The translations under genes and the position numbers were made by a program. From NCBI GenBank assembly GCA_039589995.1, contig JBDHGH010000005.1, forward strand, positions 2,813-66,812: a stretch of DNA of 64,000 bases, written 5' to 3'. Below, piece by piece: positions 47,130 through 56,269 of this stretch (the stretch's first letter is position 1; every line of letters begins with the position of its first letter). The stretch is from Gemmatimonadota bacterium. GTDB lineage: Bacteria > Gemmatimonadota > Gemmatimonadetes > Palauibacterales > KS3-K002. The notes below the pieces were generated by a model. That model was not told the origin of the DNA. It saw only the letters and a program-made list of their open reading frames with translations, and made no database searches.

Positions 47130-47136
47130 TCCAATG

Positions 47137-47270
47137 TGTGATCAGTGATCAGTAACCAGTGACTCCGTGGCCCTTCACGCTGGGTTCACGCGAGCACCGG
47201 CGATAGCCATGATCCTTCGAGTTTGAGTTCGGCCTATCAGCGATCCACTGGTTACTGATCACTGATTACA
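47137..47270. repeat. Hairpin-forming repeat module in the gcvPB leader. Partial direct copy at 45572-45631.
   Basis: TGTGATCAGTGATCAGTAACCAGTG (47137-47161) is the reverse complement of CCACTGGTTACTGATCACTGATTACA (47243-47268). The 60-nt block GATCCTTCGAG...CAGCGATCCACTGGTTACTGAT recurs at 45572-45631. Confidence 0.65.
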
Positions 47271-47308
47271 GGTTGCCCATCATGCCAACTGTCAGAGCAC
47301 TAGCGCTG

Positions 47309-49794: not shown

Positions 49795-49844
49795 GATTCC
49801 TCCAGCATGTAAAAAAAGGCTCGGTCGGGTTCTATAGTTGGGGG

Positions 49845-49880
49845 GTCACTATATCTGGGCGAGAATAGCGCCGTCAAGAC
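49845..49880 (-). promoter_or_regulatory. Sigma70-like promoter for the gcvH operon (TTGACG-17-TATAGT on the minus strand)
   Basis: -35 at plus 49872-49877 and -10 at plus 49848-49853, about 50 nt upstream of the gcvH ATG. Confidence 0.4.
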
Positions 49881-50072
49881 ACCCGTGGGCCCTCCCCGGA
49901 GAACCGTCCTGCGGGGTTCCACGGGCCCCGCGGGCGCTCGCCCCCGACGCAAGAAAGTCTTGATCTCGGGCGCGCTTGGCCCTAGCTTTGCGGGAAGTGG
50001 CACGCGGCCTAAACTGCTGCGCCGCAAGACTTTGGTGCCCTCGGCAATACTCTAGCGAAAGGAGGTGGTCCA

Positions 50073-50141
50073 GTGTCTGTTGAACCCTCTGGCCAACCGG
50101 CACGGGCAAGCGACTGCCTCAAGGTGGTGCAGGCTTGTTAA
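50073..50141 (+). CDS. Candidate 22-codon sORF (MSVEPSGQPARASDCLKVVQAC) with a perfect Shine-Dalgarno sequence
   Basis: AAAGGAGGTGG 6 nt upstream of the GTG. Followed about 65 nt later by an intrinsic terminator on the same strand. No homology evidence. Confidence 0.2.
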   Translation: MSVEPSGQPARASDCLKVVQAC

Positions 50142-50206
50142 TCGGCCTCTGACCGGGTTCAAACCCGGCGACGCCGCGAGGCGTTGCGCCGGTTGAGCCA
50201 GATCCA

Positions 50207-50246
50207 CCGGCCGCTTCTGCATTTGGGAGGCGGCCGGTCCTTTTTG
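50207..50246 (+). terminator. Orphan plus-strand rho-independent terminator
   Basis: CCGGCCGC-15 nt loop-GCGGCCGG then TCCTTTTT. No annotated plus-strand CDS upstream. Confidence 0.45.
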
Positions 50247-50250
50247 TGGT

Positions 50251-50382
50251 ATTGGGAGTTGGTAAGTAAACGAGTAATAGAGCAATCGAGACTGCGAGTT
50301 TTGAGTTGGGTCTGTAGCACGCACCCACTTCCAACTCGCAGTCTCGATTGCTCTATTACTCGTTTACTCACCAACTCCCAAT
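50251..50382. repeat. 132-bp palindromic element: 50-bp stems with one mismatch and a 32-nt loop
   Basis: ATTGGGAGTTGGTAAGTAAACGAGTAATAGAGCAATCGAGACTGCGAGTT ... AACTCGCAGTCTCGATTGCTCTATTACTCGTTTACTCACCAACTCCCAAT. Confidence 0.8.
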
Positions 50383-50395
50383 CAACCGCTTCCCC

Positions 50396-51343
50396 CTACT
50401 TGTAAATCCGATAGGTCGGGTAAGCGAAGTCGATGGCGTCTTCCTCCGCAAAGCGGTCTAGGATCGCCTCGGAGAGCCGGTCGGTCAACGAGCGGCGGCG
50501 CCGCGCGGGCGTGAGGTTTCTGATCGTAAGAAGGATGCCGGAGTCGGCGATCTCCGTGTAGACGATGGGTGCGGTGGAGCCGAGGCGGAAGGCGTACTCG
50601 CGCTCGAGGTTCTCGAAGCCGGCGCGAAGGTCAGGCACGATCTCCTCGTACAGCTCCATCGCGACGTCTCGCATTATTTGGCGAGCTTGTTTCCAATCGC
50701 TCTCGAAGGTGACGAGTATTTGGATCTCCTGCCAGACCAGCGGATTCACCGTGGCGGACGAGATGACGTTCTTGTTGAGGAATACGCTGTTGGGGACCGA
50801 GACTATGCGTCCTGTGGATTGCAGAGCGTGGACCAGCGGCTCGCCGACCTCGAGCAGGGTCGTCTTGAGCAGGCCGATGTCGATGACATCGCCGATGACG
50901 CCGTCCACCGCGACCCGGCTGCCGATCTCGACGCCCCGGCGCGAATTGACGTAGATCCATCCGGCCAGACTGCGCACGACATCGGCGAGGGCGATGGTCA
51001 CAGCGGCCGCGATGAGCCCCAGGACCGTCCCGATGTCTGCCAGCGCCAGGTTCTCCGCGAACAGTGTGACGCCCGAGACGACCAGCGCGATCCAGAGAGT
51101 GTAGGTGACGACCTTGCGTAACTGGTGCCGCTGGTTGACGTCCTCGATGTGCCCCTCGATGGCGCGACGGATGATGCGCGAGAGCCCGTAGAGCGCGAGC
51201 CCGAGGAGCAGGAAGATCACCAGCTTCTCGAGCGAGCCACCGGCCGTGACGGAATCCCACAGCCAGTCCGCGAAGGCACCGACTTGGGATGCGCTCTCTT
51301 GCGCCGCCCGTGCGGGTGGTGTTTGTATGCCGAGGACGTTCAT
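50396..51343 (-). CDS. Small-conductance mechanosensitive channel (MscS family)
   Basis: Three TM helices plus an MscS beta-domain. Confidence 0.8.
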   Translation of the reverse strand: MNVLGIQTPPARAAQESASQVGAFADWLWDSVTAGGSLEKLVIFLLLGLALYGLSRIIRRAIEGHIEDVNQRHQLRKVVTYTLWIALVVSGVTLFAENLALADIGTVLGLIAAAVTIALADVVRSLAGWIYVNSRRGVEIGSRVAVDGVIGDVIDIGLLKTTLLEVGEPLVHALQSTGRIVSVPNSVFLNKNVISSATVNPLVWQEIQILVTFESDWKQARQIMRDVAMELYEEIVPDLRAGFENLEREYAFRLGSTAPIVYTEIADSGILLTIRNLTPARRRRSLTDRLSEAILDRFAEEDAIDFAYPTYRIYK

Positions 51344-52372: not shown

Positions 52373-52498
52373 GGGAGTAGGTGAGTAAACGAGTAATAGA
52401 GCAATTGAGACTGCGAGTTTTGAGTTTGGGCCTTGCTGGGAGGCCATTCCCAACTCGCAGTCTCTGCTTCTCTGTCACTCGTTTACTCACCTACTCCC
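52373..52498. repeat. Second, diverged copy of the 50251 palindromic element
   Basis: GGGAGTAGGTGAGTAAACGAGTAATAGAGCAATTGAGACTGCGAGTTTTGAGTTTGGG... shares about 45 nt with copy 1. Its right arm is degenerate. Confidence 0.7.
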
Positions 52499-52517: not shown

Positions 52518-53915
52518 TTAACTACCGGGCAGCGTTTCATCTTCCCTGACCCGAGAGGCGATCCCAACGCCAGTAAACCCATAGGCTACGGCAAACAAGA
52601 GGCCCGTGTAGTTGAACACCGCCCAGGGCAGGTAGGACAGCGTGGCGACGCCCAGTGTGGCTGCCATGAACACGCCGGCGGCCGACCACGGGATAAGAGG
52701 GACGACGACGGTGCCGCTATCCTCGAGCGTGCGTGAGAGGTTTTTCGCAGCAAGCTCGCGTTGCCGGTAGGCCGGCGCGAACAGTTCGCCGGGTAGGAGA
52801 ATCGTCAGGTAGCTAGAGCCCGTGATGATCGCCGTGAACACCGTCGATCCGACGGTCGCCGCCACTAGTTGGCCGGTGGTACGCGTGGCTCGGAGCAGGT
52901 GGCTGAGGGCGAGGTCCAGCAGTCCGGCGCGGTTGGCGATTCCGGCGAACGAGAACGCCGCGAAGACGATGAGGGTGACCTCCATCATCGGGCCCATTCC
53001 GCCCCGAGATAGCAGGTTGTCCACCGCCGAGTCTCCGGTGTTCGCGGCGTAGCCCGTCACCATCGCGTCTAGCACATCCGAAAGAGCCTCGCCTTGAACG
53101 ATCACGGCGATCGCGGCCGCCACCGCCGCTGCCAGCAGGATGCCTGGTACCGTGGGCTTCTGTCGTACGGCGAAGTACAGCACCACGGGGAGAGGCAAGA
53201 GCACCCAGGGATTCATGACGAAGGCACCGTCCAGCGTCTCGAGGATCGCCGCGACCCTCTCGGGCGATGCGGCACTGCGGCTGTTCAATCCGACGATCAG
53301 GTAGACGAGAAGGCCTAGCGTCCATGCCGGCAGCGTCGTCCATAGCATGTGACGGATGTGATCGAACAGATTCGATTGAGCGGCCACCGGCGCCAGGTTC
53401 GTCGTGTCCGAGAAAGGCGACAGCTTGTCACCGAAGTAGGCGCCGGCAACAACCGCGCCTGCGGCAGCACCCAAAGGCACGCCGAGGCCTGCGGCCACGC
53501 CCATGAGCGCGATGCCCATCGTTCCCACCGTCCCCCACGACGTACCGGTGAAGAGCGAGATGAGCGAACAGAGTATGCAGGCGGTGACCAGAAAGAACTG
53601 CGGCGAGATGGTGTGCATGCCGAGGCGCACCAGGTACGGGATCGTTCCCGCCGCGATCCACGATGCGATGAGCGCGCCCACGCATACCAGGATCAGAACC
53701 GCCGGCAGAGCCTTGGCGATGCCTTCAATGATCCCGGCCTGCAGTTCCCCCCACGTGTACCCGAGTCGATAGGCGACCAGGCCCGCAATGGCGGCGGCCA
53801 CTATGAGCAGGATCTCGATGCGCAGGCGATAGATGCCGTAGCCCACCCCGAGCAGGATGGCCATCGAGATGAACGGGAGGAACGACTCGAACGTCGTGGG
53901 CTTTCTAGTAGACAT
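52518..53915 (-). CDS. nhaC: Na+/H+ antiporter NhaC family
   Basis: About 12 TM helices. NhaC family N-terminal region. Confidence 0.8.
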   Translation of the reverse strand: MSTRKPTTFESFLPFISMAILLGVGYGIYRLRIEILLIVAAAIAGLVAYRLGYTWGELQAGIIEGIAKALPAVLILVCVGALIASWIAAGTIPYLVRLGMHTISPQFFLVTACILCSLISLFTGTSWGTVGTMGIALMGVAAGLGVPLGAAAGAVVAGAYFGDKLSPFSDTTNLAPVAAQSNLFDHIRHMLWTTLPAWTLGLLVYLIVGLNSRSAASPERVAAILETLDGAFVMNPWVLLPLPVVLYFAVRQKPTVPGILLAAAVAAAIAVIVQGEALSDVLDAMVTGYAANTGDSAVDNLLSRGGMGPMMEVTLIVFAAFSFAGIANRAGLLDLALSHLLRATRTTGQLVAATVGSTVFTAIITGSSYLTILLPGELFAPAYRQRELAAKNLSRTLEDSGTVVVPLIPWSAAGVFMAATLGVATLSYLPWAVFNYTGLLFAVAYGFTGVGIASRVREDETLPGS

Positions 53916-56082: not shown

Positions 56083-56133
56083 TGCGGTGCGATGCTACCT
56101 CTCCTGTAACCTCCCTGCAACCCCCTCTTCTCT

Positions 56134-56269
56134 TACTCCTACTCCTAATCGTACTCGTACTCGTACTCGTACTCGACTCCAAAGGTCTGGAAGGATTGGG
56201 ATTGCGAGTAGGAGTACGATTAGGATTAGGATTACGATTACGATTACGATTACGATTAGGAGTAGGAAG
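56134..56269. repeat. About 135-bp array of degenerate hexamers (TACTCC/TACTCG/TAATCG ; GATTAG/GATTAC) with overall dyad symmetry
   Basis: (TACTCG)x4 and (GATTAC)x4 perfect tandem runs flanked by variant hexamers. Lies in the divergent promoter between the ABC ATPase gene and nhaP. Confidence 0.75.

Follow-up and report, generated by a model that had tools for sequence, protein, structure and literature searches.

Results

The mscS locus carries a near-perfect foldback hairpin

What is the 132-bp palindrome that abuts the 3' end of an mscS-family gene in the Gemmatimonadota contig JBDHGH010000005.1? We analyzed a 64,000-nucleotide stretch of this contig (the window, which is also the scope of all statements about the source genome) together with related metagenome-assembled genomes (MAGs) and metagenome contigs, whose loci are cited by L numbers. 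The data presented below firmly show that the hairpin is a member of a dispersed non-coding repeat, that it is inserted relative to related genomes, and that the repeat is strongly tied to gene 3' ends. The parts of the hairpin, which we call copy 1, and the adjoining gene are as follows.

50251-50382, no strand: foldback repeat copy 1, 132 bp, the best-preserved copy of its family, with one arm mismatch
50251-50300, no strand: left arm of copy 1, consisting of ATTGGGAG, then the variable hexamer TTGGTA, then the AGTAAACGAGTAATAGAGCAATCGAGACTGCGAGTT core
50301-50332, no strand: loop of copy 1, 32 nt, GC-richer, with a small inner hairpin, mostly unalignable between copies
50333-50382, no strand: right arm of copy 1, the reverse complement of the left arm but for one position
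50396-51343, minus strand: mscS-family gene (PF00924, 27.5 bits versus a cutoff of 20.2)

The two arms of copy 1 are complementary at 49 of 50 positions. The only mismatch, A 50264 against C 50369 on the plus strand, becomes a G.U pair on the minus strand, and under looser matching the stem reaches 59 nt at 92%. The terminal sequences are ATTGGGAGTTGG and CCAACTCCCAAT. An original prediction, made by a model from the sequence letters, had described 50-nt arms with a single mismatch, a 32-nt loop and these same ends, all of which our measurements bear out, and it had placed the hairpin at the 3' end of mscS, where we also find it: 13 nt separate the right end of copy 1 from the stop codon at 50396-50398. 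That prediction had put the GC content of the DNA at about 64%; the measured value is 61.4% for the window versus approximately 46% for copy 1. Folding, which the prediction had proposed as a check, gives an RNA minimum free energy (MFE) of −98.1 kcal/mol for the plus strand (z −17.95, or about −18) and of −101.4 kcal/mol for the minus strand (z −19.84, or about −20), and 0 of 200 dinucleotide shuffles fold as stably. The small open reading frames (ORFs) called at 50184-50405 on the plus strand and at 50159-50374 on the minus strand traverse the palindrome and are unsupported as genes, in keeping with their earlier description as artefacts of the palindrome.

With no U tract behind it, copy 1 does not qualify as a canonical terminator. 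Its stem of 50 bp, its AT-richer composition and the lack of a T run past either end all agree with the earlier statement that it is something other than a terminator, and a terminator scan called only the neighboring site at 50206-50238, not copy 1. Rfam matches on copy 1, to plant miRNA precursors and a plastid 3' UTR, were rejected as generic long-hairpin matches that occur on both strands and are all sub-threshold (bits versus gathering threshold: MIR533, 59.9/80; MIR2118, 22.6/85; Plastid-psbA-4, 26.2/56.8). Readings of the hairpin as an attC site, a retron, a CRISPR or a type I toxin were likewise dropped, the flanks being devoid of an integron array, a reverse transcriptase, a repeat-spacer array and a small toxin ORF.

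The hairpin belongs to a dispersed repeat family

The family to which copy 1 belongs comprises at least 21 copies of 110-150 bp: two lie in the window, and the other 19 occupy unrelated loci on separate metagenome contigs. The second window copy and the two genes that enclose it are:

52373-52498, same orientation as copy 1: copy 2, with a right arm of the GAGAAGCA subtype and a conserved 5-nt internal loop
51433-52359, plus strand: EamA transporter gene, stop codon 52357-52359, 13 nt before copy 2
52518-53915, minus strand: NhaC-type Na+/H+ antiporter gene, stop codon 52518-52520, 19 nt past copy 2

Copy 2 is located 2 kb from copy 1, fills the spacer of the convergent EamA and NhaC genes, and folds with an RNA MFE of −86.2 kcal/mol (z −14.5). 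The remaining copies come from one scan of the JGI metagenome contigs with a pattern derived from the conserved arm, which returned 20 loci; L016 and L019 are a single locus, and L003 was rejected as a chance match to the gapped pattern. Many of the metagenome copies are found at the ends of contigs, which is where repeats that interrupt assembly would be expected. With exact-pattern scans, the arm pattern had 0 matches in 185,579 GTDB representative genomes and 0 in IMG/VR, and in blastn searches against plasmids and phages the family was unmatched. Both window spacers recur in independent assemblies: the 601-bp mscS-gcvH spacer that holds copy 1 is found at 100% identity in contigs of samples 3300041084 and 3300041086, and the EamA-NhaC spacer that holds copy 2 is found at 100% identity in samples 3300041079 and 3300041084.

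The original prediction had called the hairpin MITE/REP-like (miniature inverted-repeat transposable element; repetitive extragenic palindromic element) and had suggested counting its copies. The count just given upholds the first half of that label, in that the hairpin is a multi-copy element and is MITE-like in the sense of small (below approximately 600 bp), non-coding, dispersed and bearing terminal inverted repeats. The second half does not stand: the arms are non-palindromic and lack a GTAG head, so the element is not of the REP type.

The arms follow an 8-nt GAG phase

Alignment of 20 copies and comparison of all 40 arms revealed a bipartite organization. Each arm opens with the tip (T)TGGGAG, giving the family consensus termini TTGGGAG...CTCCCAA. 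The tip is followed by a hexamer of approximately 6 nt that shows 37-50% pairwise identity and is usually uncompensated in the opposite arm, and then by the core, the 36-nt block AGTAAACGAGTAATAGAGCAATCGAGACTGCGAGTT, with 85-86% pairwise identity between copies. The loops vary from 14 to 50 nt, are GC-richer and, at 43% identity, are effectively unalignable. Within the arm, GAG occurs at positions 6, 14, 22, 30, 38 and 46, in an exact 8-nt phase, and recurs at position 53. Six or more in-phase GAG triplets arose in 0 of 200,000 shuffles, and GAG marks the best-conserved positions of the family (95-100% over the 40 arms). Each arm can thus be read as six or seven degenerate 8-mers of the form GAGNNNNN in a row; outside GAG the units differ, so that they do not make up a simple tandem array.

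A subfamily of seven copies, including copy 2 of the window, combines one GAGCAATC arm with one GAGAAGCA arm and has the conserved 5-nt internal loop. The same GAGCAATC/GAGAAGCA asymmetry at unrelated loci indicates descent from master copies that were copied to new sites, not local origin. No solo arms were found.

Is it the fold or the sequence that is conserved? Across the 50 stem pairs we detected no covariation: 81.9% of cells are paired, versus 81.5% after shuffling of partners, and 154 of 500 shuffles reach the observed value. Hence it is the sequence that is conserved rather than the structure, and pairing is a by-product of the equal sequences of the arms. This argues for a constraint that acts at the sequence level, perhaps as a protein site or through copying fidelity, and not for selection on an RNA fold.

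A second hairpin family is present on one of the family contigs (L008, 2895-3022); its tips are TGGGAAT...ATTCCCAAT and its differing arms are built of AATAGAAC-like 8-mers.

Most copies lie close to stop codons

Gene context was taken from composition-filtered ORFs. A stop codon is found between −27 and +22 nt from the element end in 17 of the 21 copies, the spacer between convergent genes is wholly filled by the element in five, and in two the stop codon lies inside an arm. The contact can be immediate: in L005, L012, L014, L015 and L020 the TGGGAG tip is joined directly to TAG, in L017 and L021 to TGA. Two of the three reading frames of the arms contain TGA, TAA and TAG. The element is not consistently oriented toward the abutting gene (7 copies versus 5). 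Of 41 ends, 13 have the dinucleotide TA ahead of the (T/G)TGGGAG tip, but L011 is the sole copy with TA on both sides, and often the TA simply belongs to the abutting TAG stop codon.

Orthologous sites are empty, filled or differently filled

The GcvPA protein of the window is 76-84% identical to those of uncultured Gemmatimonadota MAGs, and the gene order NhaC, EamA, mscS, gcvH, gcvPA, hydrolase is kept in 16 related MAGs. An nhmmer search of these 16 MAG loci found the family of copies 1 and 2 to be absent. At the EamA/NhaC junction the spacer measures 22-25 bp in L023, L025 and L038 versus 158 bp in the window, which is consistent with a gain of approximately 128 bp by insertion at the window site. 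Likewise, the mscS-gcvH spacer measures approximately 460-520 bp in most relatives versus 601 bp in the window, and the extra DNA sits where the sequence is variable, with the mscS stop codon on one side and a conserved block of approximately 200 nt that ends in a terminator on the other.

Other relatives contain inserts of their own at these positions. The EamA/NhaC junctions of L026, L032, L034, L035 and L036 are occupied by ORF-less hairpins of 130-215 bp with arms of tandem 7-8-mers (e.g., CGACAGC, GGTGGGC), and that of L031 by a weaker 182-bp insert. In L024 and L029 the junction holds inserts of 554 and 659 bp, respectively, which enclose an ORF of 131-137 aa; the insert arms are (GGTCGGT)n in L024 and (GGTAGGTC AGTGGGTC)n, that is, 8-mers, in L029. 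This ORF belongs to PF05635, and PF05635 cassettes are found likewise at the 3' end of EamA in L103, L114 and L115. The EamA/NhaC junction is thus a recurrent landing site that, depending on the genome, is empty or contains an ORF-less hairpin or a PF05635 cassette. Similarly, the site at the mscS 3' end carries hairpins of approximately 200 bp in L026/L034 and L033/L035, and CGGTAAC repeats in L028. Each lineage seems to have its own hairpin families.

In L028 we also noticed two copies of another hairpin family of 200-230 bp, with arms GGACAGCGGTCAGCCGTCGCTCGATTGTCGAG..., at 1253-1449 and 2453-2686; they lie just after NhaC and just before mscS.

PF05635 cassettes and other hairpins of the window

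The ORF of the L024 and L029 inserts encodes a PF05635 "23S rRNA-intervening sequence protein", a bAvd-like four-helix bundle, with E values of 1e-27 and 8e-31. At E <= 1e-20 we counted 2339 homologues of the L029 protein, with 60-70% identity across phyla, mostly on short contigs. We examined ten independent PF05635 loci: L024, L029, L048 (from Calditrichia, right after gcvPA), L103, L104, L107, L113, L114, L115 and L116. In all ten the gene lies between inverted arrays of 7-8-mers, and in all ten an upstream gene of the same orientation has its stop codon 0-5 nt ahead of the left array, also within operons (VWA/Bat genes). In the gene table, which is all that was consulted for this locus, a further PF05635 gene (P0049) lies between molybdopterin oxidoreductase subunit genes. 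A strand asymmetry of arm pairing (G.U versus A.C) relative to PF05635 or the adjacent genes was considered and dropped as inconsistent across loci.

Two other hairpins of the window have arms of 7-mers, and the first of them belongs to the same architectural class as copy 1.

47132-47275, no strand: ORF-less hairpin with GATCAGT-type 7-mer arms (TGTGATCAGTGATCAGTAACCAGTG...), 33 nt past the stop codon of the UPF0173 hydrolase gene
2605-2845, no strand: 240-bp hairpin with GGGAG...CTCCC tips like those of the studied family and GAACATC 7-mer arms

The first lies within the gcvH-gcvPA-hydrolase-gcvPB cluster, and its GATCAGT 7-mers are those of the PF05635 cassettes of L104 and L107, to whose arrays its arms are nearly identical. 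Since it has the 7-mers of a cassette but no ORF, ORF-less derivatives of the PF05635 class exist in the genome of the window. The second starts right where a 795-aa ORF without a Pfam match has its stop codon.

A hairpin of approximately 137 bp at 56131-56267 has 6-mer arms (GTACTC x4 versus GATTAC x5) and 43% GC, and lies 35 nt before the open frame of a plus-strand gene.

The cassette arrays can also be compared with published repeats. In the 23S rRNA of Coxiella, the intervening sequence (IVS) carries an S23p ORF, has a terminal stem of 28 bp and a varying number of tandem heptamers, and is removed by RNase III cleavage (PMC4990558). The origin of IVSs is called unclear in the same paper, which traces the mobile-element theory to 1993 (PMC4990558). 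Intergenic heptamer arrays of the TAACTGA type were described in Beggiatoaceae, cyanobacteria and Bacteroidetes and left unexplained (PMC4679880). The right arm of the L113 cassette contains TAACTGA, and L104 has TGACTGA/TCACTGA.

The mscS tail and a small-RNA gene flank copy 1

On the mscS side of copy 1, the coding sequence stops 5-20 codons before those of its orthologues, at a TAG in the position of a Leu codon in 15 of them. Homologous sequence (GGGGAAG...) persists beyond this TAG up to copy 1, which itself contains no stop codon in the mscS frame. Judging from this alignment, it is plausible that the insertion struck the 3' coding tail of mscS and that the nonsense mutation came later.

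On the other side lies a small-RNA gene:

50049-50248, plus strand: CC2171-like small RNA gene, conserved, with an intrinsic terminator stem at 50206-50238 plus a T run

The plus-strand terminator, a stem at 50206-50238 followed by CCTTTTTG, ends 2-3 nt ahead of copy 1. The original prediction had regarded it as an orphan; instead, it terminates the conserved small-RNA gene. Copy 1 thus occupies the variable spacer between the small-RNA terminator and the mscS stop codon.

Several observations concern the small-RNA gene itself. A promoter-like TTGATC-17-TAGCTT is present at 49960-49988. The block of approximately 200 nt is almost invariant in 15 related MAGs and can form a long-range helix CTGGCCAACCGGC...GCCGGTTGAGCCAG, and its terminator stem shows compensatory changes among relatives. 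Rfam CC2171 (RF01867, a Caulobacter small RNA) aligns over its full length at 50049-50236 with 31.2 bits, and with 37.4 bits in L024, both sub-threshold against a gathering cutoff of 75. The RF01867 consensus and the window small RNA both contain GAAAGGAGGUG(A/G)UCCAGUGUC, which we take to be complementary to the 3' terminus of 16S rRNA. Right behind this extended Shine-Dalgarno-like motif, within the small RNA, is a possible 22-aa ORF (MSVEPSGQPARASDCLKVVQAC; 50073-50141, plus strand). A 1-nt deletion in L025 converts its GTG start to ATG and keeps the frame, which hints that the 22-aa ORF may be translated; L030 lacks the segment. Finally, the region upstream of gcvH (49795-50050, minus strand) contains a promoter-like TTGACG-18-TATAGT at 49877-49848 that is conserved in the window and its relatives, and no glycine riboswitch was detected upstream of gcvH-gcvPA at E <= 1.

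Discussion

A foldback repeat and its possible link to PF05635 cassettes

How are we to explain a family of long hairpins that gathers behind stop codons? We lean toward the explanation that the hairpin is a copy of a lineage-specific, non-coding, non-autonomous foldback (MITE-like) repeat of an uncultured marine Gemmatimonadota bacterium. The likeliest further reading, although here we stop short of declaring ourselves in favor, is that the hairpin is an ORF-less derivative or analogue of the PF05635, or IVS-like, class of foldback cassettes. Four observations suggest this second proposal: insertion sites in common with the cassettes, arms of phased short repeats, placement at stop codons, and ORF-less relatives in the window.

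A unit of two inverted arms of approximately 50 bp around a short, fast-evolving loop has spread to many loci and is found almost solely within a few bases behind stop codons, often filling the spacers of convergent genes. We propose that cassettes of the PF05635 class insert right after the stop codon of a host gene that runs in the same direction, or else into rRNA helices, in which case they are known as IVSs. At the locus of copy 1, read-through from mscS would put a double-stranded RNA (dsRNA) stem of approximately 50 bp into the mscS 3' untranslated region (UTR), and by analogy with IVS stems, for which RNase III cleavage is experimentally established, and with Correia/ERIC elements, such a stem is likely to be an RNase III substrate and/or a structure that protects the 3' end. 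The mobility mechanism, a trans-acting partner, and the transcription and processing of the element are parts of this scheme that we infer.

A more ambitious generalization is conceivable, and we offer it only tentatively because we doubt it more than we believe it. The window hairpins may be ORF-less members of one widespread and so far unrecognized class of prokaryotic foldback mobile elements, whose full form would carry PF05635 between phased 7-8-nt arrays, home behind stop codons or to rRNA hairpin loops, be expressed by read-through, and encode a pentameric protein that recognizes the repeats. If this were true, one foldback class would be the common origin of rRNA IVSs, many ERIC-like hairpins and TAACTGA-type arrays.

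A number of results weigh against these proposals. An empty allele was sought in near-identical strains through exact-protein look-ups of MscS, NhaC and GcvH, and only filled loci were returned, from three samples. The PF05635 gene is absent from the window, and nhmmer searches of the window, the family loci and the 10 cassettes found no PF05635 gene between arms of the copy 1/2 type; the case for the class link is consequently one of common architecture and common insertion sites rather than of sequence homology. Nor are the arms simple tandem repeats as in the cassettes, for each is a unique 45-nt sequence of which only the GAG core is phased. Lastly, given the absent covariation, nothing shows selection for the RNA stem itself.

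Alternative explanations

The strongest competitor, though we consider it unlikely, is a classical MITE derived from an insertion sequence (IS), for example an IS630/Tc1-like element with a TA target, that is mobilized by a transposase in trans and is unrelated to the PF05635 cassettes. The family consists of multiple short non-coding copies, each of which is in its entirety a terminal inverted repeat. Its bipartite arm, with a conserved tip, a variable spacer and a conserved inner block, is reminiscent of IS ends with their cleavage and binding domains, and the second family at L008 2895-3022 has the same TGGGA...TCCCA tips. A TA is found before the tip at 13 of the 41 ends, L011 having it at both, and this is above expectation in 61% GC DNA; however, TA flanks both sides in just 1 of 21 copies, and many of the TA dinucleotides are those of an abutting TAG stop codon. 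Neither the window nor the approximately 1.7 Mb of fetched loci contains an IS or transposase with TGGGAG...AGTAAACGAG ends, and there is no plasmid, phage or GTDB representative match. Eight ORFs from window stretches without a called gene were scanned with Pfam and yielded only housekeeping domains and no transposase-type domain, although these eight ORFs cover just part of the window. An IS-derived MITE, moreover, would not typically have hypervariable loops or arms of phased 8-mers.

Could the hairpin instead be an RNA structure selected by the host, such as a bidirectional terminator, an mRNA stabilizer or a small RNA, rather than a selfish repeat? Its position right behind stop codons and between convergent genes would suit such a function, as would the extreme stability of the stem on both strands. 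We nevertheless judge this improbable. The stem shows no covariation, neither end is followed by a U tract, a canonical terminator already adjoins copy 1, and relatives have spacers of 22-25 bp at the same site as copy 2. Identical 36-nt cores at unrelated loci are unlike independent terminators, and Rfam returns only sub-threshold matches to plant miRNA hairpins.

It is more improbable still that the element is a REPIN, that is, two inverted REPs mobilized by a RAYT (an IS200/IS605-like Y1 transposase). REPINs too are extragenic, hairpin-forming and multi-copy, often lie between convergent genes and lack a clear target duplication. In contrast to REP units, which are imperfect palindromes of 20-40 nt, however, the arms are approximately 50 nt long, are not palindromic themselves, and begin with TGGGAG instead of a GTAG-type head; the inter-arm spacer is hypervariable rather than fixed; no solo arms were found; and no RAYT was seen within the 64-kb window, which was not scanned exhaustively for one.

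Finally, library fold-back chimeras can create perfect palindromes, but an assembly artefact from a chimeric fold-back read, the case that the original prediction had named as its refutation, is excluded for all practical purposes by the identical loci in the assemblies of three samples and by 20 further copies with family-specific substructure.

Significance and comparison with known elements

By itself, the hairpin represents a new family within a well-known type of bacterial repeat. The foldback repeat that we favor gains its interest from the pattern of which it is a part: in this clade, sites behind stop codons are repeatedly filled by foldback inserts with phased 7-8-mer arms, of which the full-length versions contain the PF05635 gene familiar from 23S rRNA IVSs. 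With filled, empty and differently filled orthologous sites at hand, one can test where IVSs come from, how they move and what the very widespread PF05635 protein does, questions that date from the early 1990s. Such repeats also have practical consequences, in that they break metagenome assemblies, create false small ORFs, and put dsRNA stems of the kind acted on by RNase III into 3' UTRs. To our knowledge, no bacterial repeats of this kind have been described in Gemmatimonadota.

Among known elements, ERIC/IRU of enterobacteria (127 bp) and Correia/NEMIS of Neisseria (100-155 bp) come to mind first. Transcripts that contain Correia or ERIC elements undergo RNase III processing or show altered mRNA stability. 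The window family shares with both a length of approximately 130 bp, a non-coding, multi-copy and nearly completely palindromic nature, an intergenic position at gene ends, and a long RNA stem. It differs from them in that it has no sequence similarity to either, has no demonstrable TA duplication, has phased 8-mer arms and a hypervariable loop next to 85% conserved cores, is very tightly tied to stop codons, and is found in Gemmatimonadota.

REPs and REPINs resemble the family as extragenic hairpin doublets that are frequent between convergent genes and show no clear target duplication; the window arms, by contrast, are approximately 50 nt, non-palindromic and without a GTAG head, and we know of no RAYT for this lineage. 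Foldback (FB) transposons are eukaryotic, kilobase-sized elements with a 9-bp target duplication. By analogy only, they share long inverted arms of short sub-repeats, a variable or absent center, and a whole element that snaps back on itself.

The TAACTGA-type arrays (PMC4679880) consist, like the family arms, of short repeats at gene ends that supply stop codons, and the arrays that we found to flank PF05635 are 7-mers of the same type. Those of the published study, however, are direct arrays, mostly upstream of start codons, and the study links them neither to PF05635 nor to hairpins (PMC4679880). The window element, for its part, is made of 8-mers in which only GAG is conserved.

The final comparison is with the IVSs of 23S rRNA, which occur with or without the S23p/PF05635 ORF in Coxiella, Leptospira and Salmonella (PMC4990558). 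The window element does not lie in rRNA (there is no rRNA in the window) and has no ORF, and its arms share no sequence with the PF05635 cassettes that we examined. What it does share with IVSs is a stem formed by terminal inverted repeats, 50 bp long and without an ORF in copy 1, and ORF-less IVSs are of similar size, approximately 100-150 nt. IVSs, moreover, are regarded as selfish insertions, and cassettes that encode the same protein occupy the orthologous EamA/NhaC site in relatives of the window genome.

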